Shown: one piece after another, positions 8,307 through 30,445 of the stretch
Position numbering within the stretch: the stretch's first letter is position 1
Layout: every line of letters starts with the position of its first letter
From: a candidate division WOR_3 bacterium SM23_42
GTDB taxonomy: Bacteria > Hydrothermota > Tepidihabitantia > SM23-42
Direction: 5' to 3'
Assembly (NCBI GenBank): GCA_001303785.1
Contig: LJUJ01000003.1
Location: 14,027-78,026 of the forward strand
DNA: 64,000 nucleotides
Position numbers and translations under genes: made by a program
Notes under the pieces: generated by a model
Seen by the model: the letters and a program-made list of their open reading frames with translations, nothing else
What the model was told of the DNA's origin: nothing
The model's database searches: none

Positions 8307-8331
8307 CCAGCCTTTTCCTCCATCAGGAAGT

Positions 8332-8359
8332 ATTATACAAAATTAGACAAATCTGTCAA
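8332..8359 (-). promoter_or_regulatory. Sigma70-type promoter for hslU (TTGACA-N16-TATAAT on minus strand), followed by a GGAGG RBS
   Basis: Minus-strand reading ...TTGACAgatttgtctaattttgTATAATacttcctgatGGAGGaaaaggctggATG. Confidence 0.45.
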
Positions 8360-8393
8360 GATATCGGCAAATAATCATCAAATAGGGCCGTTG

Positions 8394-8421
8394 TTGACAA
8401 ATGCATAGATTTACGTAGAAT
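8394..8421 (+). promoter_or_regulatory. Sigma70-type promoter (TTGACA-N16-TAGAAT) ending 6 nt before the GTG start of the amylase gene
   Basis: TTGACA at 8394-8399 and TAGAAT at 8416-8421; the CDS starts with GTG at 8428. Confidence 0.3.
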
Positions 8422-8427
8422 TTTGTT

Positions 8428-12103: not shown

Positions 12104-12956
12104 ACAGACCAGAAAGTTTCTGAAGATCGTGAAGGCGGCCTTAAAAGAAGACATCGGCCGTGGTGACATTACAACGGAGGCTGTTGTTTCGAAAGAAGAC
12201 AGAGCGCTAGGCGTGATATTCGCTAAGGAAGAGGGCGTGTTGTGTGGCGTTGACATCGCACAAATGGTGTTCGAGCAGCTCGATGATACTGTCGATTTTC
12301 AGAAACAACTCGACGATGGCAGTGCACTTTCCCCTGGGGTAACAATCGCCATTATCATCGGTAAGGCCTCGACCTGTCTCAAAGGCGAGAGAACCGCCCT
12401 CAATTTTCTGCAGCATCTGAGTGGAATCGCAACACTTACCAGGCAATTTACCGAAGGCGCAAAAGGAAGCATAAAGTTCTTAGATACCAGAAAAACTATA
12501 CCCGGGCTAAGAATCATGGAGAAATATGCGGTACGTGTCGGCGGTGGCTTCAACCATCGTTTCGGGCTTTACGATATGGTCATGATCAAGGACAATCACA
12601 TTCAGATCGCCGGCAGCATAACCGAAGCCGTGAACAGAGTGCGAAAGAGCAGACCAAAGGCATTCATTGAAGTTGAAGTAAAAACGCACGAAGAACTGAG
12701 GGAAGCCATCGCGCTGAAGATCAACCGGGTTATGCTCGACAACATGACACGGAATCAGATAATTCAAGCAGTCGATCAGACACGAACCACTGAGGATAGT
12801 ATCGAGATCGAAATAAGTGGTAGTATCAAGCTTGATAACATCGAACAATACGTCGACTGTGGAGCCGACTTCGTTTCCATCGGGGCACTCACCCACTCGG
12901 CAAAGGCTTTGGACATTGCCCTAAAGATGAAACTATTGGCTCCTAAGAGCACTTGA
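12060..12956 (+). CDS. nadC: Nicotinate-nucleotide pyrophosphorylase [carboxylating] (quinolinate phosphoribosyltransferase)
   Basis: [16 protein letters not shown]-terminal motif and overall NadC pattern. The true start may be the GTG near 12127 rather than the ATG at 12060, which overlaps uvrB. Confidence 0.85.
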
Positions 12957-18000: not shown

Positions 18001-18313
18001 TCTGTATGCCTGGCGTGCCCATCAGTTTAGTGGTCAAGGGGTAGAGAATCTGGTCCTCGATATCTTTGGGACTGCGCCCGGGCCAATCTGCATAAACGAT
18101 GACCTGTAGATCACCGATGTCTGGGATGGCATCAATTGGAGTATTGCGTACTGCGAAGATACCCAACATGATCACCAGAACAGCCCCGGTGATAACCAGG
18201 AACCTGTTTCTCAAACAGATTTCAATAACTTTTTCGATCATCCGTTTCTCAGTATTAACGCCGATGGCCAACCGGCGCCGCTTCTTTTTCCTGGACGCCC
18301 AGAGCACCACCAT
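15035..18313 (-). CDS. cusA: Heavy-metal efflux RND permease, CusA/CzcA family
   Basis: About 1090 aa with 12-TM RND architecture. CusA-like motifs and a conserved methionine-rich periplasmic cleft region. Confidence 0.95.
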   Translation of the reverse strand: MVVLWASRKKKRRRLAIGVNTEKRMIEKVIEICLRNRFLVITGAVLVIMLGIFAVRNTPIDAIPDIGDLQVIVYADWPGRSPKDIEDQILYPLTTKLMGTPGIQTIRSTSAFGFGLVNLIFKEGVDYYWARTRVLERLNFATSDLPSDAQVTLGPDVTAVGQIFWYTVENGFFCQNHPQQSYPEPGSCPTDGNELIPSTYDLGQLRSIQDWYVRYQLNAVIGVSEVASVGGYVKQYQIDIDPYRMVHYGVKVTDVLSAVKRSNIDVGAKTFEEGSIEFIIRGVGFIKKIEDIENIVVAAQDGVPVYISDIGSVTVGPDFRRGALDKAGTEVTGAVVVMRHGENPLRVIQGVKEKIEELAVGLPSGVRIVSFYDRTDLINRAVNTLRDALTQEILITIFVIIIFLLHFFGGMIISIVLPIGVLISFILMRVFGIDANIMSLGGIAIAIGVMVDAGSVLVENIYRKIAENQQRGNLSTSARLEICIDGAKQVGRPVFFALLTTIIGFVPVFVLTGQAGRLFRPLAYTKTFAMVGAALIAVCLLPTLAYYLIRGRLRLPDENIVSRFLRKTYYPVIRWSLNHKRIVVIVFIAFLAAGLSTSFFVKQEFMPPLNEGDLLFMPVLLPGASLSQVMDIMQKQDRIIKNEFPDEVEWVVGKLGRAETSTDPAPVTMIETIIHLKPKNQWRRGMTRDKLINQIQEKTKIPGVSPIMTQPIRNRIDMLATGIQTPVGIKVFGPDPKQIERIATGLEEIVVQLKGVSSVYAERIGSRPYFEIEIDRNQIARHGLHLGTVQDIISMAIGGMNITQTVEGRERYPVRVRYMRDFRDSPEALGRLFIPTPDGGQVPLSLLVRFNKTLGPAMIQSENTMPYFRVFINVNQEVMGLVDFVRIAQIVVDERITLGELQIPPGYYITWSGQFESEVEARSRLAVVLPICLAVILLLLYFAFRDIPSVLIIALGLPFSMVGGIIPLYLLGFKFSTAVWVGFIALFGVATDNAVVLISVFRSIFKEKKPKDVGEVREMVARGGLLRVRPIMMTVLTTVLALTPIMFFTSAGSEVIKPMASPVIGGLISATLANLILVPLFYSWIKEKQVPK

Positions 18314-19580
18314 AACCTATTGCGGCCACTCCGGCCAAATTACTCTCGGAATCAATTAAGAAGTTCCCATTAATCACCACCATCTCATTTTCGAACAACC
18401 CCTCCAGCACTGGGTAGTAACGGGTGCCGGTCTCATCTCCGTGCGCATAGCCCTCAGGTCCCAGCTTTACTACACGCGGCTGAAACTTATCATCACCAAT
18501 AGCCACCCAGACAATCTGTCGATTTCCCATATCGAGCACCGCATCTTTGGGAATCGTAATAACCATACTCGTGCCCGTTATACTGCGCACTTCATAAGGT
18601 GCTATTATCTTGGCTTCGATGAACATTCCTGGTTTCAATTTTGGTTCCATATTATTCAACCGTATCCGCGCCTTGACCGACCGTGTCTGCGAATCAAGAA
18701 TCGGACTAATAGATACAACCCTGCCTTTAAAGTTCTCACCCGGATACGCACTCGATGTTGCGATAACGTCCTGACCCCTATTGACCCAGCCCATGTCTGG
18801 TTCATAGATGTCGGCATAGATCCAGTTCCGTCCTTCAGGCATTATCAGTGATCTCTCAGGCTTCCTTGTTTGCCTCAAATGCCTTACTTCCGCGGCATCC
18901 ATTCCCAGCAGCCTTAGTTTGTATTCCGAACGTTGAATAAGCTGGGTAGCCCGCTCCTGTGCTGTCAGGCCATCACCATCAATCATATCGCTCATCTGAA
19001 GCGCATTGACGTATTCCTCCTGCGCCGTCACCAGTTCAGGATCATAGGCCACTGTTCCCACTGCCATTATTTCTTTATGCACGTGACGCCTCGTGGCGGG
19101 CACCGTTTCGATACCCGCGAGCTCTATATCCTGTGCGCTGAGGTGCAGTGCGTTTTCTGATTCACTTCCCTCATAAACTGGGATTAAAGACATACCACAA
19201 ATGGGGCAATTACCCTCTTCATCCGACTTCACTTCCGGGTGCATCGAACATGTCCAGTATTGTATCTCAGAATCTTTGCCGGTTTCGTTCTCCATCGACT
19301 GCTCTTTTTGCTGCATCAGCATGATATATTTTTCCGGATCTTTCATGAACTCAGTATCGCAACCCGGACAGCACATGTAATACTCTTGACCCTTATATCG
19401 AACAACAGGAGTGGATTCGTGAATAGTAAACTCATCACCGGTCACTGGACAAATCGCTTCGGAACCGATCAGTTCCTGATCTAGCTGAACTTTTGCCGCC
19501 TTTTCTCCACAAGAGAATACTACTAGCGAAGTCAACAATAAGAAAAAGACGACGATTGATATTCTAATGTCTGCAGACAT
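18255..19580 (-). CDS. cusB: RND efflux periplasmic adaptor (CusB/CzcB family) with N-terminal heavy-metal-binding domains
   Basis: N-terminal YHS/TRASH-like CPVTGDEF...YYMCCPGCD and a WTCSMHPEV...CPICGM metal-binding module, followed by membrane-fusion-protein beta-barrel/lipoyl regions. Confidence 0.85.
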   Translation of the reverse strand: MSADIRISIVVFFLLLTSLVVFSCGEKAAKVQLDQELIGSEAICPVTGDEFTIHESTPVVRYKGQEYYMCCPGCDTEFMKDPEKYIMLMQQKEQSMENETGKDSEIQYWTCSMHPEVKSDEEGNCPICGMSLIPVYEGSESENALHLSAQDIELAGIETVPATRRHVHKEIMAVGTVAYDPELVTAQEEYVNALQMSDMIDGDGLTAQERATQLIQRSEYKLRLLGMDAAEVRHLRQTRKPERSLIMPEGRNWIYADIYEPDMGWVNRGQDVIATSSAYPGENFKGRVVSISPILDSQTRSVKARIRLNNMEPKLKPGMFIEAKIIAPYEVRSITGTSMVITIPKDAVLDMGNRQIVWVAIGDDKFQPRVVKLGPEGYAHGDETGTRYYPVLEGLFENEMVVINGNFLIDSESNLAGVAAIGYGGALGVQEKEAAPVGHRR

Positions 19581-19589
19581 AATACCTCC

Positions 19590-20801
19590 TTATTTCTGAT
19601 TATCAAAGCCGACAGCTTCCTCTAGGTCGGCTACGGCCATGAATAGGTCTACTCGCGCCTGTTCGTATTCGAACTCGGTCTGGACTAACAATTTCTCACT
19701 CTCGAGTAGGCTTTGAAATTCTATCTTGTTCACCTCATATGAAGCAAGCGCGGACTTCACTCCGGCCTCGGCTTGCGGCAAGATTGAATTTTTGTACAAC
19801 TCCACTACATGCTGAAACTTTTCGACTCGCGTCTTCGCATCCTTTACTGCCAGCAGAAGATTATTTGCCATCGCCTGATAATTAGCAGATGCTTTCAGTA
19901 ATTTAGCCTCGGCTTCCCTGACAAACTCACGCTGTTTTGCCCAAAACCAGATAGGGAGGGTAATGCCGATCATATACTTGTTGCTGTACGCATCATTGTC
20001 CATTTTTTCCAGTGTATATCTGAACGCAAAATCTGGCAGGTATGTCTGGCGGGCCATCGACAACACGACCTCTGCTTTCCTACGCTGTAATTCATAAACC
20101 TTTAACAATGGCTGGTTTTCCTGAGCCAGCGCATACAACGTGGCTAATCCTAAGCTATCGGTAGTTGTCTCGAGCCGGAGAGGTCTGCCCACTTTCACTT
20201 CAAGATCACGGTTGAGCAAGACGTTGACTTTAGCTTCAGTTATATTCAAGTCATCTCGTAATACTACCAGTCGATTTTCAGACCGGGCCAGTTCCACCTG
20301 TGCTCTGAGCACCTCGGCCTGAGAAGCCTCACCAATTGAGTATTTATATACTGTGATGCTGTGTATCTGCTTGAGAAAAACAATTGATTTTTCTAGCGCG
20401 GCGATGTTTCTAGAAAGCAAGAATAGTTCTGCATAGGCTTTTTTCACATCCCTTATGATCTGTTGGATCCTGCTCACGTACAAATTACGATATTGATTGG
20501 TCTCGTTGCGGGCGACATGAGATAGGCTGGCGATTTTTGAGGGAAACGGTACCGGCAAGGTCAAGCTGTACATTCTCTTACTCTCACTGAACTCCGCAGC
20601 AATAGTGGGATCAGCCAAATGTCGAGCCCACGATGTGGTCGCACGGATAGCTTCATAATCGGCCTTGATCGCCTGCAATTCTGGATTGTTCGCCTTTGCC
20701 TCTTCAATCAACTCATCAAGGCGTAGCTCCTGGTCAGCATCTGCACGGCTCCAAACAGGCAAAGAAAAGAATAACAAAAACGCTAACAATAATCGCTTCA
20801 T
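19590..20801 (-). CDS. cusC: Outer membrane efflux protein (TolC/CusC family)
   Basis: Signal peptide; two-repeat coiled-coil/beta-barrel TolC-like organisation; about 400 aa; immediately upstream of cusBA. Confidence 0.85.
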   Translation of the reverse strand: MKRLLLAFLLFFSLPVWSRADADQELRLDELIEEAKANNPELQAIKADYEAIRATTSWARHLADPTIAAEFSESKRMYSLTLPVPFPSKIASLSHVARNETNQYRNLYVSRIQQIIRDVKKAYAELFLLSRNIAALEKSIVFLKQIHSITVYKYSIGEASQAEVLRAQVELARSENRLVVLRDDLNITEAKVNVLLNRDLEVKVGRPLRLETTTDSLGLATLYALAQENQPLLKVYELQRRKAEVVLSMARQTYLPDFAFRYTLEKMDNDAYSNKYMIGITLPIWFWAKQREFVREAEAKLLKASANYQAMANNLLLAVKDAKTRVEKFQHVVELYKNSILPQAEAGVKSALASYEVNKIEFQSLLESEKLLVQTEFEYEQARVDLFMAVADLEEAVGFDNQK

Positions 20802-21111
20802 TTTATGAATAGACGGATTACATAACGGTAAGTTACGTAATGACCGGATCAGTAGCGTTATATGAAGAAAACCGGCGACTGCCTACAGTGCAGATTAAGT
20901 TTCTCTGCTCACGGCAGACGCCGGTTGGGAGGAACCAATAAAGCATCTCCTATGCTTTGATGTCCCTTTTGGTTCTCAAATCTATTGACGGTTCATCGTT
21001 AAAAAAGTTACGACACCGAATCGTCCGCGCGCTCGGAATCAACTTTCTTAACCTGACTGACGGATCGTGTGTAAAAGTTTTGCGGTATATCTTCTCTTGA
21101 GTTAATTCGTA

Positions 21112-21903
21112 CTAAGGACAGTGCCTATTTGAGGCATCAGGGTTCTTGATACATTCGATACACTTGTGCTGATTTAAACAATCTTGTATCGCCTCTTCAA
21201 TAACTGCCGTGTCACCATCGCAGGCACAATGTCTTGCTTCCTGCAGCACCTTCATCTGCTGCTTACTGCATTCATAGATTTGATCGATGATCTCCAATGC
21301 GCTATTTTCATCCAGAAGTTCAGCACAATTAATCGCTAGTCCTGTCTCGTGCAGCATCTTCGCCAACAAGTCTTCATTAATTTTCACCCCCGGTGTGAGC
21401 AAAGACATAAATTCATCAGTTCGCTTACCTGCATAAACTACATGCAGTCTTGCCTTGCCTTTAGTATCAGTGGTTAGCAAAAGCTGGACGCGCTCAGTGG
21501 CAATCTTGATTGGGTATAGCATATGACCGGGCAGGCTGTTGGCGCTCAACGAGACTGTGGTCAAACCGACCACAAAAACTAGCAAGGTAATTGCAGCAAC
21601 TCGAACCATGACTGGCCTCAGAGCGAATATTTCTCGCAATGAGAATCCTTTCGGCGCCTTCTGTTCGCTCAAAAGCACGCGTGCTTGGTTGATTACGGTT
21701 TCAATCACCTCTGCACTGGGTTCAGGCTTGGGCAACTCGGCTATGCTGTTCACCAAGTGTAATAACGGTCTCAGTTCGTCCGCATATTCAGGATATTCAC
21801 GCAGACAATCATCAACGGATCTGCCCCTTTTGACTTCAGCTATTAGTTCATCTAATATTTCTTCAATTTTTGTCTTCATAACCTTGTCTCGAAAAATAGT
21901 CAC
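21112..21903 (-). CDS. Putative transmembrane anti-sigma factor with Cys/His-rich periplasmic C-terminus
   Basis: Overlaps the 3-prime end of the ECF sigma gene. One TM segment (VMVRVAAITLLVFVVGLTTVSLSA). The C-terminal tail HCACDGD...CLNQHKCIECIKNPDASNRHCP has 7 Cys and 3 His. Confidence 0.5.
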   Translation of the reverse strand: MTIFRDKVMKTKIEEILDELIAEVKRGRSVDDCLREYPEYADELRPLLHLVNSIAELPKPEPSAEVIETVINQARVLLSEQKAPKGFSLREIFALRPVMVRVAAITLLVFVVGLTTVSLSANSLPGHMLYPIKIATERVQLLLTTDTKGKARLHVVYAGKRTDEFMSLLTPGVKINEDLLAKMLHETGLAINCAELLDENSALEIIDQIYECSKQQMKVLQEARHCACDGDTAVIEEAIQDCLNQHKCIECIKNPDASNRHCP

Positions 21904-22444
21904 GCAAAGCCCTCAACGCCCTGAATTGAAGTACCTTTATCGCGCCAACAGATTTGCCCATGAATTCAGCCGCTTCGCTATTACTGAATCCTTCGATGAA
22001 TCTGAGAATTATCACCTGCCGCTGTTCCTCGGTTAATCTTTGCATACCTTTTCTTAATCGTTCCCTGGTCAAGGTTTGCCGGGAAAAGTCGGCCGATTTG
22101 TCTGCGATGTCATGCGACAGATCGGAAAGTGATAGTTCGCGACGTACCGCCTTTTTTCGATAGAAATCTATCAGTGCGTGCTTGGCTATTTTGTACATCC
22201 AGGCATGAAAATTGCCCCGCTGATTTTTCAACGCCTTTATCACCTTCAAAACAACCTCACTTGTTAAATCTTCAGCGTCTTCAGGCTGATTTACTCGGTA
22301 GAAAACATAGCTGTAAATCCTTGAATACACATAGACACACAACTGTGATAAGGCATCTTCATCACCTTTCTTTGCACCATCGACAAACCTCCTAAGCTCG
22401 TATTTTTCTAGATCTTTTCTCAAATGTAAAGACGGATAGTCTTT
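21863..22444 (-). CDS. ECF-family RNA polymerase sigma factor
   Basis: Sigma-70 region 2 (YVYSRIYSYVFYRV...PEDAEDLTSEV) and region 4 (LTEEQRQVIILRFIEGFSNSEAAEFMGKSVGAIKVLQFRALRAL). Start placed at the internal ATG (MKDYPSLH); the longer ORF to 22585 is probably an over-extension. Confidence 0.85.
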   Translation of the reverse strand, partial: KDYPSLHLRKDLEKYELRRFVDGAKKGDEDALSQLCVYVYSRIYSYVFYRVNQPEDAEDLTSEVVLKVIKALKNQRGNFHAWMYKIAKHALIDFYRKKAVRRELSLSDLSHDIADKSADFSRQTLTRERLRKGMQRLTEEQRQVIILRFIEGFSNSEAAEFMGKSVGAIKVLQFRALRALRDYFSRQGYEDKN

Positions 22445-22516
22445 CATAAAGTTACAGCAGATTATAGACACCCTAAACCAAAAGTCAATTTTCGCGAACC
22501 ACCGCCGAAATTGACC

Positions 22517-22544
22517 TTGACATATCCTACTTTTTTGGTAGAAT
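22517..22544 (+). promoter_or_regulatory. Sigma70-type promoter (TTGACA-N16-TAGAAT) for the iscR operon
   Basis: TTGACA at 22517-22522 and TAGAAT at 22539-22544, about 20 nt upstream of the ATG at 22565. Confidence 0.4.
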
Positions 22545-22564
22545 ATATTGTGAGATTGACAACC

Positions 22565-22969
22565 ATGGCAACATACGCGGTGCAAGCTATGCTCGATCTA
22601 GCAAGCCAACCTGAGGGTCAAGTGGTAGCACTGAGAAAGATCGCGGACCGCCAGGGAATAAAGGCAAAGTACCTGGAACGAATCTTCTTGAAGCTTCACC
22701 GTGCCGGGATAATCGCGAGCAAAAAAGGCCCAGGGGGTGGTTATTACATAGACCGGCCTATCAAATCAATCAAAATAGGTGATATAATGGACGCTGTGGG
22801 CGAATTCCGAGGATTGGTAAGATGCCAAATCGCAGATTCTGAAAACTGCTGTTCGCGTGCCGACGACTGTTCGATTCGACCGTACTGGAAGAGGATGAAA
22901 GACACGATTGACGAATTTCTCAATTCTTCCACGCTTTATGACATCATACACCAGAAAAGGAAACCGTAA
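22565..22969 (+). CDS. iscR: Rrf2-family transcriptional regulator (IscR-like)
   Basis: MATYAVQAMLDLA...LRKIADRQGIKAKYLERIFLKLHRAGIIASKKGPGGGYYI is the canonical Rrf2 winged helix. Three Cys in the C-terminal half (CCSRADDC) could ligate an Fe-S cluster. The upstream part of the listed ORF overlaps the promoter, so the start is placed at 22565. Confidence 0.85.
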   Translation: MATYAVQAMLDLASQPEGQVVALRKIADRQGIKAKYLERIFLKLHRAGIIASKKGPGGGYYIDRPIKSIKIGDIMDAVGEFRGLVRCQIADSENCCSRADDCSIRPYWKRMKDTIDEFLNSSTLYDIIHQKRKP

Positions 22970-23004
22970 TGACAATCAGTAGATCTGTAGCATAGGAACG
23001 CTGA

Positions 23005-24072
23005 ATGCAGAAATTTCCTGAAATAGGTAAAATATCGCCAGAGGTTTTCAATCGATTGATCTACCCTCATCTGGGGGCGAAACGCCCTGAAATCCTTGTT
23101 GGACCGCAACACGGAGTCGATGTGGGAATCGTCGAGATCGGCAACAGAGCAGTAGCCATGACTAGCGATCCAGTTTTCATAGTACCTGAATATGGTTTCG
23201 AAAGGGCTGCCTGGTTTGCTACGCATATTCTGGCGTCGGATGTCGTGACCTCAGGTCTGCCGCCTACTTATCTCGCCATTGACTTGAATCTACCAGTATC
23301 TATGACCGAAGCAGAACTAACAACGGTCTGGAATACTATTGACGAAGAAAGTAAGAAAATGGGTATGGCGATTGTGTGTGGGCATACAGCAAGGTACGAG
23401 AATTGTCACTATCCCATGGTAGGTGGTGCCACAGTACTAGCCATCGGTGATACTGACATGTATGTCACCCCGAAGTTTGCGCGAAAGGGTGACAAGATTG
23501 TTATCACGAAGGGTCCGGCGATTGAAGCATCCGGTATCTTCGCTACTATGTTCCCGAAATACATCGCCCGTAAATACGGAGATGAGTTCGCCCGGAAATC
23601 ACAGCGGTTATTCTACATGATGTCAGTTGTGAAGGATGCGATGACTGCAGTAACGGTTGGCGTGCGTGATGATGGAATTTCTGCAATGCACGATGCAACC
23701 GAGTGCGGCATCTGGGGTGGTTTGTGTGAAATCGCTCAGGCAGCCGGTCTGGGCGCACGCATCGTAAAATCACAGATTGTCATCGAAGACGGTGTGCAGC
23801 AAATCTGTGATCTGTTTGCGATAGACCCCTACAGATCAATCAGTGAGGGAACGCTGATCATAACCTGCCGTGAACAAAAGACCGACGAATTAGTTGAAAC
23901 CCTAATTCAAAATGATATAAAAGCCTCGGTTGTGGGTGAATTAATCGAACCCAAGTACGGCATACTATTACTCGAGGATAATAAGGAAGTAAACCTAGAA
24001 CACCCAAATGTTGACCCATTCTGGAAAGCATTCTACATGGCTTTGCAGAAATATGAACATTTGGAAACATAG
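23005..24072 (+). CDS. PurM-superfamily (AIR synthase-related) ATP-binding protein of unknown specificity
   Basis: N-domain HGVDVGIVEIGNRAVAMTSDPVF (cf. GEDAAV...VVTTD of PurM/ThiL/HypE/SelD) and a C-domain. Lacks the SelD GxGC(U)K motif and the HypE C-terminal Cys. Confidence 0.65.
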   Translation: MQKFPEIGKISPEVFNRLIYPHLGAKRPEILVGPQHGVDVGIVEIGNRAVAMTSDPVFIVPEYGFERAAWFATHILASDVVTSGLPPTYLAIDLNLPVSMTEAELTTVWNTIDEESKKMGMAIVCGHTARYENCHYPMVGGATVLAIGDTDMYVTPKFARKGDKIVITKGPAIEASGIFATMFPKYIARKYGDEFARKSQRLFYMMSVVKDAMTAVTVGVRDDGISAMHDATECGIWGGLCEIAQAAGLGARIVKSQIVIEDGVQQICDLFAIDPYRSISEGTLIITCREQKTDELVETLIQNDIKASVVGELIEPKYGILLLEDNKEVNLEHPNVDPFWKAFYMALQKYEHLET

Positions 24073-24083
24073 CAGGGTAAATC

Positions 24084-25235
24084 ATGATCTACCTCGACTA
24101 TAATGCAACCACTCCAACCGACTCACGGGTAGTTGAAGCAATGCTTCCGTATTTTCATGATATATCAGCTAACCCTTCTTCGATTCATACCGCAGGTCAT
24201 AAGGCCCGAGAAGCCCTGGAAGGTAGCCGCACCGCGCTGGCGGAATTATTGAAATCCCGAAATGATGAAATATATTTTACTTCCGGTGGAACCGAGGCTG
24301 ATAATACTGCCATCAAGGGAACGTCCTTTGCCCAAGATAAACGAAAGAAAATCATCACGTCGGCGATAGAACACCACGCTGTGCTCACAACCTGCGAGTA
24401 CATGAAGAAATTCGGATTTCGGGTCGTAAAGGTACCGGTTGACCATTATGGTGTTGTCGACCTAGATTTCCTCGAGCAAGAGGTTGATGACAACACGCTC
24501 ATTGTATCAATAATGCACGCCAACAACGAAGTAGGCACGATCGAACCGCTTGAAAAAATCGGCGAGATTGTGCATCGCCACGGTGTGATCTTTCATACTG
24601 ACGCCGTGCAAACGGTCGGAAAGATACCGATTGATGTCAGGACATCGGGAATCGACATGCTTTCTCTGTCCGCTCACAAGTTCTGTGGACCAAAAGGGAT
24701 CGGCGCGCTTTATGTCAGGAAGGGTGTGCGCTTCGATCCTCTGAGCCATGGTGGCCACCACGAGGGCGGCAAGCGCGCCGGCACCGAAAACGTCCCGGGT
24801 ATTGTTGGCCTAGGTAAGGCATGCGAAATCGCCCTAGATGAAATGAGCGCGGAAGAAAAGCGTATCAGAAAACTAAGAGATAGACTATGGCAGGGTATAA
24901 GTGAGCGGATTCCGGAGTTAAAACTGAATGGCCATCCTGAAAAGAGGCTGGCAAACACCCTCAATGTCAGTGTCAAATACGTCGAAGGCGAATCAATGCT
25001 ATTGCAGCTCGATGCGAGAGGAATATTTGCTTCGAGCGGCTCAGCCTGTACCTCAGGTAGTCTCGAAGCCTCCCACGTACTCCTCGCGATGGGTTTGCCT
25101 CACGATATGGCACACGGTTCCTTACGTTTCTCATGCGGAAGATATAATACCGAGCGAGACATTGACAAGGTGATAGAAGTATTTCCCGGTATCGTTGAGA
25201 AGCTTAGGGTAATGTCTCCCCTGTACAGACCCTGA
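24084..25235 (+). CDS. nifS: Cysteine desulfurase (NifS/IscS, class V aminotransferase)
   Basis: MIYLDYNATTP start; PLP-lysine region SAHKFCGPKGIGALYV; active-site Cys loop SSGSACTSG. Confidence 0.95.
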   Translation: MIYLDYNATTPTDSRVVEAMLPYFHDISANPSSIHTAGHKAREALEGSRTALAELLKSRNDEIYFTSGGTEADNTAIKGTSFAQDKRKKIITSAIEHHAVLTTCEYMKKFGFRVVKVPVDHYGVVDLDFLEQEVDDNTLIVSIMHANNEVGTIEPLEKIGEIVHRHGVIFHTDAVQTVGKIPIDVRTSGIDMLSLSAHKFCGPKGIGALYVRKGVRFDPLSHGGHHEGGKRAGTENVPGIVGLGKACEIALDEMSAEEKRIRKLRDRLWQGISERIPELKLNGHPEKRLANTLNVSVKYVEGESMLLQLDARGIFASSGSACTSGSLEASHVLLAMGLPHDMAHGSLRFSCGRYNTERDIDKVIEVFPGIVEKLRVMSPLYRP

Positions 25236-25262
25236 TGCCGCTAACATAAACAAGGAGTCAGC

Positions 25263-25703
25263 ATGCAATACTCGCAGAAAGTCATGGACCACTTCATGAA
25301 CCCACGTAACGTGGGCGAGATCCAAAACGCGGATGGCGTCGGTACTTGTGGTAATCCGGTATGCGGTGACCTAATGACCTTTTACGTGAAGATAGAACCA
25401 CGAACCGACAATCTTGATATGGCACGTATCACCGAGATACGCTTCAAAACTTTTGGATGCGGTGCGGCGATCGCAGTCGCATCAATGGCCAGCGAAATGG
25501 CGAAAGGCAAGACATTATCTGAGGTTGTAGATCTTTCGCGTGACGACGTTGCGGATAATCTTGACGGCCTCCCCCCTGTCAAGATGCACTGCTCAAATCT
25601 TGGTGTGCAAGCAATACAGGAAGCACTAAAAGACTACTTGACGAAAATGGGTCGGCGAGACCTTGCCAGCAAGATAAAAGGGTGTTCAAAGGAAGAACAT
25701 TAG
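25263..25703 (+). CDS. nifU: Fe-S cluster assembly scaffold protein (NifU/IscU-type)
   Basis: HF.NPRN.G......G..G.P.CGD and ...FKTFGCGAAIAVASM... with the three conserved cluster-ligating Cys. Confidence 0.9.
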   Translation: MQYSQKVMDHFMNPRNVGEIQNADGVGTCGNPVCGDLMTFYVKIEPRTDNLDMARITEIRFKTFGCGAAIAVASMASEMAKGKTLSEVVDLSRDDVADNLDGLPPVKMHCSNLGVQAIQEALKDYLTKMGRRDLASKIKGCSKEEH

Positions 25704-25849
25704 TCTGCACGCCATCCGCACCCACTGCAAAAACCCATACAAAACGCATTACAGCATACTATTGCATTTGATTACCCTCTATATATAATAATAACTAAAC
25801 AATAGTCATCGATATAAACTATTACCATACTTGGTCACATTTATACTGA

Positions 25850-26395
25850 ATGAAAGATACTAGACAAATAACACAACTTATCCAAAGGGTATTGAGCAAC
25901 GATGAAAGCGCTTGCCAGAAGATACTAAATTTATACAAGGGAAGAATCTTCAGCTATGTGTATCGCATGGTGAAAAACTATCACGACGCCGAAGACATTA
26001 CCTTCGACACTTTCATCAAGTGTTTTAATAGTTTGGCGACTTTCGACACGTCCAGACCTTTTGCCACCTGGTTGTTCACAATTGCTCACAATGCCACCAT
26101 GGATTTTTTCAGAAAGAACAAGCAGGAATATGAATACCTTGATGACCGTCAAGCGGTCGGTGATGATTTTGTTCAAGAATATGAAAAGAAGAAGAAAATG
26201 GAGAGAATCGAAAGGGCCTTGGCAGAACTCCCCCCTATGGACCGTGAAATCGTGGTTCTTTTCCACAAGGAGGAACATTCTTACCAAGAAATTAGCACAA
26301 TTACGAACCTTCCAGTGACGACTATAAAAACCCGGCTTCACCGTGCACGAAAAAAGCTGCATATGCTGGTCCGCGAAAAGTCCGAGAAAAGATGA
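25850..26395 (+). CDS. ECF-family RNA polymerase sigma factor
   Basis: Region 2 (IFSYVYRMVKNYHDAEDITFDTFIK...FATWLFTIAHNATMDFFRK) and region 4 (LPPMDREIVVLFHKEEHSYQEISTITNLPVTTIKTRLHRARKKL). Confidence 0.85.
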   Translation: MKDTRQITQLIQRVLSNDESACQKILNLYKGRIFSYVYRMVKNYHDAEDITFDTFIKCFNSLATFDTSRPFATWLFTIAHNATMDFFRKNKQEYEYLDDRQAVGDDFVQEYEKKKKMERIERALAELPPMDREIVVLFHKEEHSYQEISTITNLPVTTIKTRLHRARKKLHMLVREKSEKR

Positions 26396-26425
26396 AACTT
26401 CCCGCCCATTCTTGCGTATTACCTA

Positions 26426-26950
26426 GTGATGAAGCATAAAGAGATAGAAAGACTAATCCAGAAGAAGCTAGACCGCGAAATCGGCCTCGACGAGAAACGC
26501 AAGCTAGATAAGCATCTGGCTCAATGTCCTGAGTGTGTACTGTACTACCAGGAAATGATGCAGGCAAGCAAATCACTGAGAGAACTCACCGAGTTTTATC
26601 CACAAACCGACTTCAATGCTCGCGTACTTGCCAAATTGGGTTTGCGAAGGAGATTCGCCTGGACAAAAGCCGCATATGTCTTTGCCGGCAGTTGGCTCGC
26701 GGCAATTCTCTTCTTTGTCTACTCACCTTTGCCGGCGCAGTTCCTTAGCCGCGTTGCAACATCGGTCCCAGCGCTCATGAGATTGTATGACAAAGTTGAG
26801 TTGGTAATTGCCTCGTTAACTCAAGTGCTGTCCCCGGTAATCAAAAGCTCCTTCAGTACCTTGAATCCGTTCATTGGATTAGCCTTCAGTATTATGTTCG
26901 TTTATTTCCTAGGTAAAGCCTTACAAAAGGAGGTAAAATGCAAGGCCTAA
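26426..26950 (+). CDS. Anti-sigma factor with zf-HC2 zinc finger, membrane-anchored
   Basis: HLAQCPECVLYYQEMMQ (H-x3-C-x2-C, the ZAS-type motif) immediately downstream of the ECF sigma gene. A TM segment (AAYVFAGSWLAAILFFVY) and a second C-terminal hydrophobic region. Confidence 0.65.
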   Translation: MMKHKEIERLIQKKLDREIGLDEKRKLDKHLAQCPECVLYYQEMMQASKSLRELTEFYPQTDFNARVLAKLGLRRRFAWTKAAYVFAGSWLAAILFFVYSPLPAQFLSRVATSVPALMRLYDKVELVIASLTQVLSPVIKSSFSTLNPFIGLAFSIMFVYFLGKALQKEVKCKA

Positions 26951-28275
26951 CAATATTGCTCATACTTACAACATTATCCAGTCCACTGGCTGCAGATAGT
27001 CATGCTTACGTCGGCTCACTGCCCGCGGTTGAAGTAATCGCAACCAGATGCGCAGACGAAGACGTAGCTTGGAGTGGATTGATGCCCGCGGTTGAAGTAA
27101 CTGCACCGCGTTACGAGAATGAAGACATTGCCTGGTGCGGTATGCTTCCAGCAATGGACGTTACCGCCAACCGGCAGGCGCATAATCGTACGAAAAACAC
27201 CGAGCCTACCCACGCACAAGCAATCCTTGTCAGTCATGTCACCGAACCCGACGTTGAACTTGACCTGTCCATTGCCGACCTGAAGATATTTGGTGCAATA
27301 CCCGCTGCGGTAACATTTAGTGGTGACTACAGTCTGGCCGAAAACGATACAATTTACGAAGACGTGACGGTGACCGGCGGTAATGCCAAGATAGACGGAG
27401 TGATCAGTGGTGATCTAGCGGTAATGGGCGGCAGAGTAGATATCAACGGAATGGTCGACGGCGACGTCGCGGTCTTCGGCGGCAATCTTGATCTAATGGG
27501 TATTATTGATGGTGATGCAGCAGTATTAGGTGGCAATATTAGGAATCGTGGCGCCATTGAGGGAGACCTACACGTAGTTGGCGGGACGGTTTATCTTGAC
27601 TCCGCATCAGTAGTTGAGGGAAATATCAGCATGGTCGGCGGCACTGTTGATCGTGACACCAACGCCGTGGTCCTGGGCACAATAGAATCGATTGAAATCA
27701 AGGCATTAGAAAAGGTATTGCCACGCATAAGCAAGGCGTTCAGGTTTCCCCGGATGCTACCCAGTGCGGCATTTCCCAGAGCAGTCTTCATCGGCATGCT
27801 TGTTGTCCTCTACTTATTCAATGTCCTTGTGTTGCTTATATTCCCAAATGCCGTGGAAAGAGTGAAGGAAAAAATCAAACAAAGCATATGGGCATCCGTC
27901 GGCTTGGGTATTGTGATGGAACTTCTTTTCGTACCTCTGATAGTGTTACTTGCCGTTTCAATAATCGGAATACCGCTCATCATACTACTGCCATTGGCTG
28001 TGTTTGTGGCCATACTATTCGGAGTCTCTGCTCTATCCCTCACCACTGGTGACCGCGTGTGCAAAGGATTCAACTGGAAGGTCGAGAGTCAACTAGGTAG
28101 GTTCAGTCTCGGTTGGCTCGCGCTCATGCTCATTCCGATTGTGCTCATTCTAATCGGACCACCTGTCTTTATCCTTGGCTTTGTCATCATCTATGTGGTG
28201 ATGACAATCGGCTTGGGTGGTATAATATACACGCTAATAAAAAGGAAAACAGTCGAAGTTAAAATAAAGAAATAA
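26938..28275 (+). CDS. Secreted/membrane beta-helical repeat protein (DUF4097/bactofilin-like repeats) with C-terminal polytopic membrane domain
   Basis: Signal peptide. Three tandem ~21-aa repeats (LPAVEVIATRCADEDVAWSG...). About 8 short G-D-x-x-V-x-G-G repeats (GDLAVMGGRVDINGMVDGDVAVFGGNLDLMGIIDGDAAVLGG...), as seen in DUF4097/LiaG-like and bactofilin beta-helices. Then about 5 hydrophobic TM helices. Start overlaps the anti-sigma stop. Confidence 0.5.
   Translation: MQGLTILLILTTLSSPLAADSHAYVGSLPAVEVIATRCADEDVAWSGLMPAVEVTAPRYENEDIAWCGMLPAMDVTANRQAHNRTKNTEPTHAQAILVSHVTEPDVELDLSIADLKIFGAIPAAVTFSGDYSLAENDTIYEDVTVTGGNAKIDGVISGDLAVMGGRVDINGMVDGDVAVFGGNLDLMGIIDGDAAVLGGNIRNRGAIEGDLHVVGGTVYLDSASVVEGNISMVGGTVDRDTNAVVLGTIESIEIKALEKVLPRISKAFRFPRMLPSAAFPRAVFIGMLVVLYLFNVLVLLIFPNAVERVKEKIKQSIWASVGLGIVMELLFVPLIVLLAVSIIGIPLIILLPLAVFVAILFGVSALSLTTGDRVCKGFNWKVESQLGRFSLGWLALMLIPIVLILIGPPVFILGFVIIYVVMTIGLGGIIYTLIKRKTVEVKIKK
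27019..27204. repeat. Intragenic tandem repeat, about 63 bp x 3 (third copy diverged)
   Basis: ctgcccgcggttgaagtaatcgcaacc... recurs as atgcccgcggttgaagtaactgcaccg... about 63 bp downstream, then a degenerate third unit. Encodes the LPAVEV... peptide repeats. Confidence 0.6.
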
Positions 28276-28292
28276 GCAATAGTCATCTTAAA

Positions 28293-28326
28293 GGGCCAGA
28301 CGCTCCAGAAAGTCTGGCCCTTTTTT
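28293..28326 (+). terminator. Rho-independent terminator
   Basis: GGGCCAGAC (28293-28301), a 10-nt loop, then GTCTGGCCC (28312-28320), followed by TTTTTT (28321-28326). Lies immediately after the stop of the 26938..28275 gene. Confidence 0.65.
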
Positions 28327-28381
28327 GTTATTCTAATTTGAGTATATGTTGAATTTCTTCGCTATCCGGCTATAATAGAAC

Positions 28382-30445
28382 GTGATAAGTGTCGACCATT
28401 TGAAAGAATTGATCGCCAGTGGGGACTTTGATAAGGTAGAAAACCTCTGGACAGATTTGATTACGGAGAGGAATATCGGTCTGGCCGAATACTTTGAGAT
28501 AAGCGATGCCCTTAAGCAAGTTGGTGAGCTCAAACGAGCATGCTTGCTGCTGGAACTGCTCGGCGACCACTACGAGACGCAACGAAATTACAGCGCTGCG
28601 ATCGAAGTGCAAAAACACATGCTACGCTATCGCCAGGAAGATCTCTCAATACGTAAGAGACTAATCGAGCTGTATCGCAAGCAACACCCTAATTCACAAC
28701 ATCTCGAAGAATACTTGGAGCTTTCAGGTTTGAGCAAATCTGACCCCATCATGAAGGCGATGCAGCGATTCGAAGAATTCCTTAAATACGACGTGGGCAA
28801 TTACTTTTACTTTGAGCGCTATGGCATGGGTAAAATCGTTGAAGTAATACCCCAAAAACGGGAAATCGTGGTCGATTTCGAAAAGAAGAATCGCCATTTT
28901 CTCGATATCGACGTTGCCCGGGGACTACTGTCACCGGTTAATGCCGAGCACTTCCTCTACAAGAAAAACAAGGAACTTGATGACTTGAAATCACTGGCAT
29001 CCTCACAACCGGTGCAACTTGTGGTAATGATCCTCCAGAGCTTCCGCGAACCACTCTCCGCGCCAAGAATTAAAGGTTATCTTGAGGGTATAATTGATAC
29101 AACCGAATTGAATTACTTCTGGGGAAAAATCAGGAAAGACCTCGAAAAAAATGATAACGTTAGGGTCGCTGGTAGGACAAATAAGACCTACACATACGTT
29201 GGTTCAGCAGCGGCTAAGCAAGATCACGCGATAAAAGCCTTCAATGAGGCAAATATTCGAGAGAAGTATCTATTGGCTGAAGAATATTTAAAGAAAATGC
29301 CTGAAGTTTTCAACATTCTGACACCAAGACTGAGACAATTAGGTCCCCAGGTTCGAAAAGAACATCCCGGGATTGCCCTCGACATACTTATGCTGTTTCA
29401 TGACATCGGGGAACTCAGCGAGATTGATCATTCAACAAAGGAACTGCTGAACGTGAGTAAGCCTGAAGACATACTCAACGACATGGCAAGCCACGAGCAT
29501 CAAGCCAGGCTACTACTCTATCTAAAGGAAAAATATCCTGACGAATGGCTGCAAACTGCCAAGAAAATATTGCTCAACAGCGAAGATTTCAAATTACTCG
29601 ATTCCGTGGCAGATAACTTGAAAAGCACGCCGCACACACTTGAGGATATTAACCACAAGATATTTGCCATGCCAAAACAATATACTAAACAGTATCTCTG
29701 GATGCTAAAAAGAATCGAAGCAGGTGCTCTCGCCGAATATTTGAAACCCACGCACATTCCCAGATTGATCGACACCCTTGAATACATAAGCGGCATCAAG
29801 GCAATCGTGAAGAAAATATTGTCTCTCGAAGCTTTCGATACTATGATCGCAAACGCCACGGAGAATGAAGCTTCAAGAATACGAAAATCCCTCAATAGAA
29901 GTGCTGCACTGAATGATTACGAAAAAAAAGGTCTCTTAAGGATTATCGAGCATCACTTCCCGGATTTGTTCGAAAAAAAATACGATATAATATACACAAC
30001 TGCAGCTGCGCTAAAAAGAAAAAAAGAAGAACTCAACCATATCCTCAGCGTCGACATACCTGCAAATAAAAAGGAAATTGGCCGGGCGCGTGAGTTCGGT
30101 GATTTGAGTGAAAACTTTGAATATAAGGCGGCCAAAGAAAAACAGGATCAGCTCTACGAGAAAGTGAAAACCATTGAGTCTGAATTGCAGAAGATACAAC
30201 TCATTGAGTCCTTAGAGATAAGGACAGACCGTGTTGAGATTGGAACCGCAATTACGTTAAGAAGCTCCAGGGACAATTCATTCGTCGTGTACAGAATACT
30301 TGGCCGGTGGGATACCGACCTGGCACACAAAACCATTTCTAACGAGGCGCCACTTGCCCGAGCGATGCTGGGTAAAAAACGTGGTGATTCAATTGAAATC
30401 GAGGGCATCGAATACGAAATCGCCGAAATCGGCAAGGCTTTCTGA
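28382..30445 (+). CDS. GreA/GreB-family transcription elongation factor with a ~500-aa N-terminal extension
   Basis: C-terminal ~160 aa matches GreA: EFGDLSENFEYKAAKEKQDQLYEKVKTIESEL...ISNEAPLARAMLGKKRGDSIEIEG. Starts with GTG. Confidence 0.75.
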   Translation: MISVDHLKELIASGDFDKVENLWTDLITERNIGLAEYFEISDALKQVGELKRACLLLELLGDHYETQRNYSAAIEVQKHMLRYRQEDLSIRKRLIELYRKQHPNSQHLEEYLELSGLSKSDPIMKAMQRFEEFLKYDVGNYFYFERYGMGKIVEVIPQKREIVVDFEKKNRHFLDIDVARGLLSPVNAEHFLYKKNKELDDLKSLASSQPVQLVVMILQSFREPLSAPRIKGYLEGIIDTTELNYFWGKIRKDLEKNDNVRVAGRTNKTYTYVGSAAAKQDHAIKAFNEANIREKYLLAEEYLKKMPEVFNILTPRLRQLGPQVRKEHPGIALDILMLFHDIGELSEIDHSTKELLNVSKPEDILNDMASHEHQARLLLYLKEKYPDEWLQTAKKILLNSEDFKLLDSVADNLKSTPHTLEDINHKIFAMPKQYTKQYLWMLKRIEAGALAEYLKPTHIPRLIDTLEYISGIKAIVKKILSLEAFDTMIANATENEASRIRKSLNRSAALNDYEKKGLLRIIEHHFPDLFEKKYDIIYTTAAALKRKKEELNHILSVDIPANKKEIGRAREFGDLSENFEYKAAKEKQDQLYEKVKTIESELQKIQLIESLEIRTDRVEIGTAITLRSSRDNSFVVYRILGRWDTDLAHKTISNEAPLARAMLGKKRGDSIEIEGIEYEIAEIGKAF

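Follow-up and report, generated by a model that had tools for sequence, protein, structure and literature searches.

A PurM-like gene in a nifS-nifU operon belongs to an unnamed enzyme family that is probably linked to thiamine metabolism

What is a PurM-like gene doing between an Rrf2-type regulator and nifS-nifU in an iron-sulfur cluster operon? The question is raised by a window of 64,000 nucleotides from candidate division WOR_3 bacterium SM23_42 (assembly GCA_001303785.1, contig LJUJ01000003.1, positions 14,027 to 78,026 of the forward strand). The initial annotation described the gene as an uncharacterised PurM-superfamily enzyme that is almost certainly co-transcribed with its neighbours, and proposed an ATP-dependent sulfur-trafficking or scaffold-maturation step coupled to the cysteine desulfurase. 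The analysis presented here confirms the observation, but only partly supports the interpretation. The gene belongs to a large family, called X here, that in many other bacteria and archaea is controlled by thiamine-sensing riboswitches and sits beside, or is fused to, genes for vitamin B1 assembly. It therefore most likely performs an unassigned step of thiamine synthesis or salvage rather than of Fe-S cluster assembly.

All four open reading frames lie on the plus strand. The Rrf2-family (IscR-like) regulator gene is listed as an open reading frame at 22511-22969 and was initially read from an ATG at 22565. However, the N-terminus MRLTT is shared with the 139-residue Rrf2 protein of L002, one of the homologous loci compared below, which suggests that the true start is the GTG at 22550 (22550-22969). 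The protein matches Pfam Rrf2 (8e-35), scores 113 bits against the IscR equivalog model (cut-off 207) and contains a Cys-rich segment, C-x8-CC-x5-C. It is followed by the PurM-like gene (23005-24072, 355 residues), nifS (24084-25235) and a NifU/IscU-type scaffold gene (25263-25703). NifS matches Aminotran_5 (2e-91) and passes the NifS equivalog TIGR03402 (579 bits, cut-off 531), while NifU matches NifU_N (7e-45) and falls just under the cut-off of NifU_clost (179 versus 188 bits). The intergenic gaps are 35, 11 and 27 nt, in agreement with the 12-36 nt first noted. A strong sigma-70-type promoter (TTGACA, 16 nt, TAGAAT, with an extended -10 TG) at 22517-22544 matches 11 of 12 consensus positions and is the best plus-strand site in 22300-26000. 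It is a consensus match only, with no experimental support. A divergent promoter at 22488-22461 serves an ECF sigma gene on the minus strand. No convincing terminator lies between the genes, so that co-transcription is plausible, although it has not been shown experimentally.

A profile search, which had been named beforehand as the way to place the protein in a PurM subfamily, found only the generic Pfam models AIRS (34.9 bits, cut-off 24) and AIRS_C (68.6 bits, cut-off 23.1). Every curated equivalog (HypE, ThiL, SelD, PurM and PurL) failed, with scores of 78.3 bits for HypE (TIGR02124, cut-off 251.6), 57.3 for ThiL (TIGR01379, cut-off 184.15) and 51.4 for SelD (TIGR00476, cut-off 125). None of 67 family members tested passes the ThiL or HypE cut-off, the best member reaching an E-value of 1e-42 against HypE and still falling below it. 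A structure model had likewise been suggested as a check, and an AlphaFold2 model (pLDDT 96.4) matches the HypE, ThiL and SelD folds. In an alignment of 144 sequences the acidic metal ligands of the superfamily, in the DxxxV, TTD, SD and C-domain D-x-T/S motifs, are at least 97% conserved, with Asp39, Asp55, Asp79, Asp230 and Glu233 at 98% or more and His127 at 99%.

The initial annotation was correct that this is an uncharacterised PurM-superfamily enzyme distinct from SelD and HypE, and it is also neither ThiL nor PurM. Many automatic annotations nevertheless call it HypE, which is its best-scoring curated model and PDB relative. This identity is effectively refuted: besides the failed equivalog, the C-terminus (ALQKYEHLET) lacks the Cys that is carbamoylated in HypE, the family has no invariant Cys, no hyp or hydrogenase genes occur among 256 neighbours scanned, and X is abundant in haloarchaea, which lack [NiFe] hydrogenases. 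The SelD Cys/Sec-Lys motif had been called missing, but only half of it is. The Cys/Sec is absent, since the window protein has Pro5-Glu6-Ile7-Gly8 before the Lys and no Cys column above 15% frequency occurs in the N-terminal 100 residues of the family. The catalytic Lys is retained, as Lys9 aligns with Lys20 of Escherichia coli SelD and is 97% conserved.

The family has over 5,000 homologues and forms 312 clusters at 50% identity (E <= 1e-30), spanning many bacterial phyla and most archaeal lineages. NCBI holds it as 'AIR synthase family protein', a PurM relative without an assigned function, and JGI labels many members HypE; CDD has PurM-like proteins of unknown function in subgroups such as PurM-like1, which were not checked here. 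None of these labels connects the family with thiamine, and no prior description was found in the literature that could be searched.

Genomic context was examined in 79 loci from different species; loci that carry a homologue are designated L001 onwards. In 24 of the 79 an Rfam TPP riboswitch (RF00059, 59-78 bits, gathering score 54.3) lies on the same strand upstream of X; in 19 it ends 47-152 nt before the start codon and in five one gene intervenes. Some thiamine link is present in 45 loci, with ThiE found by tblastn in 21, ThiD in 15, TenA in four, ThiC in three and Thi4 in two. An unbiased Pfam census of 128 same-strand operon mates ranks ThiE (TMP-TENI) first with 12, followed by NifS with 10, ThiD with 6-7, NifU with five and ThiC with two. 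The neighbours pass their NCBIfam equivalog models and define the operons TPP-ThiC-X-ThiD-ThiE (L044), TPP-X-ThiE-ThiD-TenA (L041), TPP-X-ThiD-ThiE-CytX-like (L054), TPP-X-ThiD-TenA (L038) and TPP-Thi4-X (L015). Three cluster representatives are fused to the thiamine-phosphate synthase ThiN, in both domain orders (X-ThiN in P0123 and P0192, ThiN-X in P0149). The window itself and its WOR-3 relatives have neither a TPP riboswitch nor a thi gene nearby, so that a thiamine role there rests on orthology alone. NifS-linked and riboswitch-linked members belong, however, to the same orthologous group and are intermixed on the tree, and the WOR-3 clade containing the window gene branches next to riboswitch-controlled Zixibacteria and Dehalococcoidia members that are 61-67% identical to it.

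Because ThiE adjacency and ThiN fusion would also fit the step after TMP synthesis, X could be a second, divergent thiamine-monophosphate kinase or a thiamine kinase that feeds ThiL. It is detectably homologous to ThiL (hhalign probability 99.7%), and canonical ThiL cross-hits X at 22-29% identity. A canonical ThiL (317 and 279 bits) is, however, encoded immediately downstream of X in L024 (TPP-X-ThiL-ThiD) and in L073, and ThiL is reported in all Haloarcula and in all ammonia-oxidising-archaeal MAGs (PMC12029414, PMC12236431), lineages that carry X. This co-occurrence argues against isofunctionality, although adjacency would fit consecutive phosphorylations from thiamine to TMP to TPP. An apparent anti-correlation with ThiM, described below, is predicted by neither kinase role. 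TMP kinase activity was not assayed, and on the available evidence this reading is considered unlikely.

Conservation of the linkage to nifS across genomes had also been proposed as a test. NifS adjacency recurs in 14 of the 79 loci, from at least three phyla, and in close WOR-3-type relatives, so it is not a one-off. It occurs in several gene orders (Rrf2-X-NifS-NifU, NifS-NifU-X and NifS-X-BirA), with a tandem NifS-X-NifS-X in L012. The Dehalococcoidia locus L004 has one NifS paired with X and another paired with NifU, and a ThiN-X fusion is coupled to MnmA. NifU is adjacent in nine loci of a clustering that includes the window and L002. The outcome that had been set in advance as refuting the initial annotation, namely a clean classification as ThiL or another known enzyme together with unconserved linkage to nifS, was observed on neither count, and the finding stands, but for a different reason.

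These observations, together with the SelD-like Lys loop, could suggest a sulfur-activation or sulfur-trafficking partner of NifS, such as a SelD-like 'sulfide dikinase' or a maturation step for the NifU scaffold, possibly delivering sulfur for thiazole formation. The evidence does not support this role, and it is regarded as improbable. NifS adjacency is the minority context, 65 of 79 loci having no NifS nearby, and co-occurrence with NifS/NifU is not consistent across genomes, since the close relatives L001, L087 and L088 keep X after losing the adjacent nifSU. In L006 the riboswitch lies between nifU and X. The family has no invariant Cys to carry a persulfide, the best column reaching 85%. 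The strongest partners, ThiE/ThiN and ThiD, do not handle sulfur, and a pure Fe-S role would not be placed under TPP control.

The best explanation is that X is a thiazole-branch enzyme that supplies thiazole phosphate to ThiE/ThiN, most likely as a non-orthologous ThiM-type kinase. What the analysis demonstrates is that, across phyla, orthologues of X are under TPP-riboswitch control, are co-operonic with ThiE, ThiD, ThiC, TenA, Thi4 and ThiL, and are sometimes fused to ThiN; placement in the thiazole arm and the reaction itself are inferences from this context. The inferred reaction is ATP- and Mg-dependent phosphorylation of the hydroxyethyl group of thiazole alcohol (THZ or carboxy-THZ, possibly thiamine as well), using a ThiL-like metal-binding site (Asp39, Asp55, Asp79, His127, Asp230, Thr232 and Glu233) and a SelD-like N-terminal lysine loop (Gly8-Lys9). 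Thiamine-pathway membership of the family is strongly supported (probability about 0.9), the supply of thiazole phosphate is only somewhat more likely than not (about 0.55), and the specific ThiM-like reaction is tentative (about 0.4). In this view, the gene has been captured into the Rrf2-nifS-nifU operon of the window through a clustering of thiazole-arm genes with the sulfur-mobilizing machinery, as reported for Thi4, and not through a role in Fe-S assembly.

The ThiM-like assignment draws on the operon shape X-ThiD-ThiE(-TenA), which mirrors the classic thiM-thiD-thiE(-tenA) operon. No ThiM, ThiG, ThiS or ThiF recurs among 128 further neighbours in the 45 thiamine-linked loci, and no ThiM signature motif occurs in 89 sequences. 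X is common in Haloarcula, where ThiM is found in only two species, and is absent from the top-120 hit lists for Natrinema, where ThiM is found in all species (PMC12029414), even with a Natrialbaceae query. This pattern fits mutual exclusion of X and ThiM but does not settle it, since absence from two top-120 lists does not prove absence and no whole-genome presence/absence profile was compared. Other observations weigh against the kinase. Phosphorylation of an alcohol is not a known reaction of the PurM superfamily, no biochemical or genetic data exist, and phosphorylation of 4-methyl-5-(2-hydroxyethyl)thiazole was not measured here. A thiazole kinase does not by itself explain the tight pairing with NifS, with gaps of 5-37 nt, a start overlapping the stop in L086 and the tandem duplication in L012. 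In addition, the family is highly conserved (75-94% identity across haloarchaeal genera) and occurs in prototrophic autotrophs such as Nitrososphaerales, which is more than expected of a pure salvage kinase.

High conservation and presence in prototrophs would instead fit a de novo step, and an alternative is that X processes the Thi4 product, cleaving ADP-thiazole (ADT) at the alpha-beta phosphoanhydride to give AMP and (carboxy)thiazole phosphate by chemistry like the ADP-to-AMP cleavage that SelD performs. The step from ADT to THZ-P is still unassigned in archaea and attributed to a 'presumed NUDIX hydrolase' (PMC4215014; PMC12029414). X is widespread in Archaea, which use Thi4, including Sulfolobales, Thermoplasmata, Nitrososphaerales, Methanospirillum, Bathyarchaeota and haloarchaea. 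Thi4 is adjacent to X in L015 and L018, ThiE adjacency and ThiN fusion fit any supplier of thiazole phosphate, and X has the SelD-like Lys loop and a GGH(T/S) motif. Thi4 neighbourhoods are also enriched in NifS, NifU and MnmA (PMC13325395), the same sulfur genes seen next to X. If this reading were true, X would be the long-missing enzyme of the Thi4 route, working next to a NifS that feeds sulfur to Thi4, so that NifS, Thi4, X and ThiE/ThiN would form a complete thiazole module in archaea and anaerobic bacteria. It is considered unlikely, however, since only two of 79 loci have Thi4 nearby, and X often sits in salvage-type operons (TenA, CytX-like, ThiD, ThiE) without it. X also appears absent from Natrinema, Haloferax and Halorubrum, although Thi4 is reported in all Natrinema and Haloarcula studied (PMC12029414) and is essential in Haloferax (PMC4215014), and eukaryotes with THI4 have no such protein.

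Among known systems, ThiM (hydroxyethylthiazole kinase, PF02110) is a functional analogue only: X occupies the same operon position with ThiD, ThiE and TenA under a TPP riboswitch, but ThiM has an unrelated ribokinase-like fold and sequence, and the shared activity is a hypothesis. HypE (PDB 2Z1E, 2I6R) is the best sequence and structure match overall (127 bits by family profile, TM up to 0.75) and has a similar D-x-T-x-G-G segment, but X lacks the C-terminal Cys that carries the thiocarboxamide and has Glu in this motif where HypE has Arg. With SelD (PDB 3U0O), X shares the N-terminal loop, in which G-K-I-S-P aligns with C-K-I-S-P of the E. coli enzyme, the GGH(T/S) motif and frequent proximity to a NifS-like desulfurase, and like the Cys-less SPS1/SEPHS1 paralogues it keeps the fold without the Sec/Cys. 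It thus has no selenide- or sulfide-binding residue, and its context is thiamine rather than selenium. ThiL (PDB 3C9T, 5CC8) has the same two-domain fold (Foldseek TM 0.61-0.68) and belongs to the same pathway. X shares with it the Asp ligands, a C-terminal D-x-F and a D-x-(S/T)-(D/E)-G motif, its H-D-x-T-E-G-G matching I-D-x-S-D-G of ThiL with an acidic residue at +3 where HypE has Arg and SelD has Gly. The two proteins are only about 18% identical, X has GGH where ThiL has GGN, and its extra SelD-like G-K loop does not align with ThiL. X is also encoded next to a true ThiL in L024 and L073, which indicates a distinct function.

The plus strand of the window carries four consecutive ORFs: an Rrf2 regulator (listed from 22511, with the ATG used in the initial annotation at 22565), a 355-residue ORF (23005-24072), a 383-residue ORF (24084-25235) and a 146-residue ORF (25263-25703). 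Pfam assigns these to Rrf2, AIRS and AIRS_C, Aminotran_5 and NifU_N, respectively, while NCBIfam places the third above the NifS equivalog cutoff (579 versus 531 bits) and the fourth just under NifU_clost (179 versus 188 bits). The intergenic gaps are 35, 11 and 27 nt, and the best promoter-like site on the plus strand of the region lies directly upstream of the Rrf2 gene (22517-22544; TTGACA, 16 nt, TG-n-TAGAAT, 11 of 12 matches). No convincing terminator separates the genes, so that co-transcription, which the initial annotation had regarded as almost certain, is plausible but not demonstrated. The Rrf2 protein probably starts at GTG 22550 (MRLTT...), as in its homolog in the WOR-3 genome CP070795 (locus L002), and since the -10 element ends only 5 nt before this codon a leaderless or nearly leaderless mRNA is implied. 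A second strong promoter-like site on the minus strand (22488-22461) is arranged back to back with the first and serves the divergent ECF sigma gene; the long minus-strand ORF listed as 21863-22585 must start well downstream of its first TTG because its homologs are 194-198 residues long. The arrangement described in the initial annotation is thus confirmed.

The surrounding regions (18255-22585 and 25850-30445) are syntenic with L002 and with two further loci (L085 and L086). The shared order consists of an RND efflux pump with a CusB-like HMBD/YHS adaptor and OEP, a DUF5667 protein plus an ECF sigma factor, the Rrf2-X-NifS-NifU operon (where X denotes the PurM-like protein and its family), a second ECF sigma factor with a zf-HC2 anti-sigma factor, a 445-residue membrane protein with repetitive GG.(V/I)D..G segments and no Pfam hit, and a 687-residue GreA/GreB-domain protein. 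The window is therefore very probably from a WOR-3 bacterium. A tRNA gene (1398-1470) is the only Rfam match at the gathering threshold in the 64 kb window.

A search against curated models, which the initial annotation had suggested as a means of placing the protein in a PurM subfamily, showed that X passes only the generic AIRS and AIRS_C models. Its equivalog scores are all far below the respective cutoffs (HypE, 78 versus 252 bits; ThiL, 57 versus 184; SelD, 51 versus 125; PurL, 35 versus 526). PurM, methanogenesis marker 2 and sll0787-type proteins were likewise ruled out as divergent identities, and none of 67 diverse family members passes any equivalog. A word-indexed search found 5595 homologs, of which the top 120 are 69-98% identical, and an exhaustive search of 50%-identity representatives found 312 clusters at E ≤ 1e-30, reaching down to about 30% identity over the full length. 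Named members come from candidate division WOR-3 (the closest relatives of the window protein), Dehalococcoidia and other Chloroflexota, Zixibacteria, Planctomycetota, Omnitrophota, Actinomycetota, Elusimicrobia, Myxococcota, Bacillota and the cultured Rosettibacter primus, and, among Archaea, from Sulfolobales, Thermoplasmata/Ferroplasma, Nitrososphaerales, Methanospirillum, Bathyarchaeota and many haloarchaeal genera. In one of the last, Saliphagus (locus L084), two in-family paralogs (5242-6282 and 8001-9098; 51% identity) lie 1.7 kb apart, the first of which was not called as a gene in the sister assembly (L083); since the second AIRS gene is not a ThiL, this locus is uninformative. Every source names the family `AIR synthase family protein', `hydrogenase maturation factor' or `HypE'. 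Haloarchaea have no [NiFe] hydrogenases, so the last two labels are wrong there.

The genomic context of X was examined in 79 loci from different species (L003-L081), supplemented by the context of several close relatives, and three independent kinds of evidence point to thiamine. Firstly, Rfam detects a TPP riboswitch above its gathering score, on the same strand and upstream of the gene, in 24 of the 79 loci. In 19 of these the aptamer ends 47-152 nt before the start codon, and in five a single gene intervenes: ThiC, Thi4, a methyltransferase (twice) or an unidentified ORF. A random gene is estimated to have roughly a 0.1% chance of lying directly behind one of the handful of TPP riboswitches in a genome. 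The intervening methyltransferase, found in two unrelated bacteria (L026, 566-1267; L037, 286-1002), is SAM-dependent, weakly similar to the DVU_1556 family and 65% identical between the two loci; no methylation step is known in thiamine synthesis or salvage.

Secondly, a Pfam census of 128 same-strand operon mates ranks ThiE (TMP-TENI) first with 12 members, followed by NifS (10), ThiD (6-7), NifU (5), BirA (4), Rrf2 (3) and ThiC (2). A tblastn survey finds ThiE in 21 loci, ThiD in 15, TenA in four, ThiC in three and Thi4 in two. NCBIfam confirms these identities above equivalog cutoffs and yields the operons TPP-ThiC-X-ThiD-ThiE in Rosettibacter primus (L044), TPP-X-ThiE-ThiD-TenA in Thermomicrobiales (L041), TPP-X-ThiD-ThiE-CytX-like in Actinomycetota (L054), TPP-X-ThiD-TenA in Bacillota (L038), TPP-MTase-X-TenA-ThiE in Myxococcales (L037), TPP-Thi4-X in Chloroflexota (L015), TPP-X-ThiE-Thi4 in Dehalococcoidaceae (L018) and X-ThiDN in Haloarcula (L076), where TPP denotes the riboswitch. 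In the Bacillota MAG (L038), a c-di-AMP riboswitch (12922-13047), cut by the locus end, lies about 6 kb downstream of the thiamine operon. Thirdly, three cluster representatives carry the X domain fused to the thiamine-phosphate synthase domain ThiN, in both orders (X-ThiN in P0123 and P0192, ThiN-X in P0149), and a fourth (P0216) is fused to a PfkB-type kinase. Altogether, 45 of the 79 loci show some thiamine link.

Whether the linkage to nifS is conserved across genomes had been posed beforehand as a test of the sulfur-related interpretation, with a clean assignment to ThiL (or another known enzyme) and unconserved linkage named as grounds for rejecting it; X is not assigned to ThiL, and the linkage is real but secondary. 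A NifS-type gene (at least 49% identical to that of the window) lies on the same strand within about 2.5 kb in 14 of the 79 loci, and NifS was the most frequent neighbor in a sequence-clustering census (18 loci, a count that also includes weaker NifS-like hits plus the window and L002). The arrangements differ between lineages: Rrf2-X-NifS-NifU in WOR-3 (the window, L002, L035, L085 and L086), NifS-NifU-X or NifS-X in Dehalococcoidia and NifS-X-BirA in Omnitrophota and Planctomycetota. In L035 (WOR-3 genome CP070664; 6001-6801) the match covers only residues 88-354 of the query, directly upstream of NifS-NifU, and could arise from a frameshift, a pseudogene or an assembly error. A Dehalococcoidales MAG (L012, about 3770-8421) has a tandem NifS-X-NifS-X duplication, suggesting that the pair is selected as a unit, and L004 has one NifS paired with X and another paired with NifU. 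A ThiN-X fusion is translationally coupled to MnmA, a client of the desulfurase sulfur relay. An 85-residue protein that resembles a NIL domain by inspection only recurs near X and NifS in Dehalococcoidia (L005, L011, L012 and L023), together with a 409-residue protein of unknown family; NadA recurs in L012, L023, L060 and L067, and BirA follows X in L057, L060, L066 and L067, so that these regions look like general cofactor and sulfur gene neighborhoods.

The linkage to NifS therefore arose repeatedly and is not due to chance. However, 65 of the 79 loci lack it, the TPP riboswitch lies between nifU and X in L006 and between NifS and X in L017 and L018, and close relatives at 72-77% identity carry X elsewhere (L001 and L087) or in the same syntenic frame with nifSU deleted (L088). 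The possibility that NifS-linked and thiamine-linked members form separate clades, possibly with different functions, was examined with a neighbor-joining tree, in which the two are intermixed. The WOR-3 clade of the window lies next to riboswitch-controlled Zixibacteria and Dehalococcoidia sequences that are 61-67% identical to the window protein. The window gene is thus an ortholog of the thiamine-regulated genes, although a search of the window and of WOR-3 relatives found no TPP riboswitch or thi gene. A 2026 comparative study reports that Thi4 genes also cluster with NifS, NifU, MnmA and ThiS/ThiF (PMC13325395), and clustering with sulfur-mobilizing genes therefore seems to be a property of the thiazole branch in general.

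The step catalyzed by X can be narrowed by its neighbors. The functions of ThiD, ThiE and ThiC are excluded by co-occurrence in the same operons. A role as a TMP kinase is unlikely, as a bona fide ThiL (317 and 279 bits; cutoff 184) is encoded immediately downstream of X in two unrelated loci, L024 (TPP-X-ThiL-ThiD) and L073, and ThiL is also reported in all Haloarcula and in all ammonia-oxidizing-archaeal MAGs (PMC12029414, PMC12236431), lineages that carry X. Adjacency to ThiE and fusion to ThiN point to a step that touches thiamine-phosphate synthesis and, with ThiD providing the pyrimidine substrate, the open slot is the supply of thiazole phosphate. Two means of supplying it remain. A ThiM-like kinase is favored, since X-ThiD-ThiE(-TenA) operons mirror the classic thiM-thiD-thiE(-tenA) operon, and neither a Pfam census of 128 further neighbors in the 45 thiamine-linked loci nor a motif scan finds any recurrent ThiM or ThiG-route gene. 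In addition, X is common in Haloarcula, where ThiM is reported in only two species, and does not appear among the top 120 hits for Natrinema, where ThiM is reported in all species (PMC12029414), even when the query is from the same family, Natrialbaceae. Processing of ADP-thiazole is attractive because this step is still unassigned (PMC4215014, PMC12029414) and because of the archaeal distribution and SelD-like features of X, but is weakened because Thi4 is reported in all Natrinema and is essential in Haloferax, while X seems to be absent from both, and because only two of the 79 loci have Thi4 nearby; it is considered unlikely. The inferences from hit lists in both cases are provisional, as they rest on the top 120 hits only.

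The interpretation in the initial annotation, an ATP-dependent sulfur-trafficking or scaffold-maturation step coupled to the cysteine desulfurase, is thus supported only in part: the enzyme is uncharacterized and recurrently NifS-linked, but is assigned here to the thiamine pathway (probability about 0.9) and not to Fe-S assembly, and NifS-coupled sulfur activation appears improbable. A TMP or thiamine kinase is likewise considered unlikely. While the riboswitches, operons and fusions of the orthologs are observed directly, the reaction is inferred from them: supply of thiazole phosphate to ThiE/ThiN is only somewhat more likely than not (about 0.55), and the ThiM-like kinase reaction itself is tentative (about 0.4). 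These results do not explain why the gene is so tightly, and repeatedly, coupled to NifS, nor why it is so strongly conserved in prototrophic archaea. The recurrent pairing with NifS bears on how sulfur reaches the thiazole ring in anaerobes.

Thiamine biosynthesis is usually regarded as nearly completely described, yet this family, with more than 5000 detected homologs and about 300 clusters at 50% identity in most archaeal lineages and many bacterial phyla, has no assigned function. Full-text literature searches, together with the relevant comparative-genomics papers (Rodionov et al., 2019, PMC6593275; the OarX study, PMC11223231; the Thi4 neighborhood study, PMC13325395; and the haloarchaeal studies), found no mention of it in a thiamine context, although prior mention is not ruled out because these searches did not extend to some subscription papers on archaeal ThiR/ThiN regulons. 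The superfamily and the pathway are both known, and what is new is the function proposed for X within them. Its assignment would correct thousands of annotations, change predictions of B1 prototrophy versus auxotrophy in environmental genomes (Chloroflexota, Planctomycetota, Nitrososphaeria, haloarchaea and candidate phyla), add a new reaction type to the PurM superfamily and possibly identify either a non-orthologous thiazole kinase or the unassigned ADP-thiazole-processing step.

A family profile searched against PDB sequences gives HypE 127 bits, E. coli SelD 89 bits and ThiL 77 bits. A structure model, which had been proposed in advance as a way to see which substrate pocket the protein resembles, was obtained with AlphaFold2 at high confidence (pLDDT 96.4) and matches HypE, ThiL and SelD structures about equally well (TM 0.6-0.75, 13-23% identity); no member of the family has a solved structure. 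In 144 family sequences, the residues that are at least 90% conserved are Gly8, Lys9, Gly24, Pro34, Gly37, Asp39, Asp55, Pro56, Asp79, Gly84, Pro87, Leu96, Pro97, Gly126, His127, Thr128, Gly140, Gly162, Asp163, Met228, His229, Asp230, Thr232, Glu233, Gly235, Glu242, Gly250, Asp274, Pro275, Gly282, Leu300, Gly311, Asp337 and Trp340, of which the aspartates are the metal/ATP ligands of the superfamily. No cysteine is invariant (the best column is 85%), which argues against a persulfide-carrier mechanism. A MAFFT alignment suggested that Trp340 pairs with a C-terminal tryptophan of ThiL, but hhalign instead aligns Asp337-Pro-Phe339 with the D-H-F of ThiL, so that a shared tryptophan is not supported; the role of this ThiL motif was not confirmed from the literature. 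The H-D-x-T-E-G-G motif aligns with I-D-x-S-D-G of ThiL and keeps the acidic residue at +3, where HypE has arginine and SelD has glycine, whereas the N-terminal G8-K9-I-S-P loop aligns with E. coli SelD from Lys20 (KISPKVLETIL) and has no counterpart in ThiL. The protein therefore looks like a competent ATP-dependent phosphotransferase with a hybrid ThiL/SelD active site.
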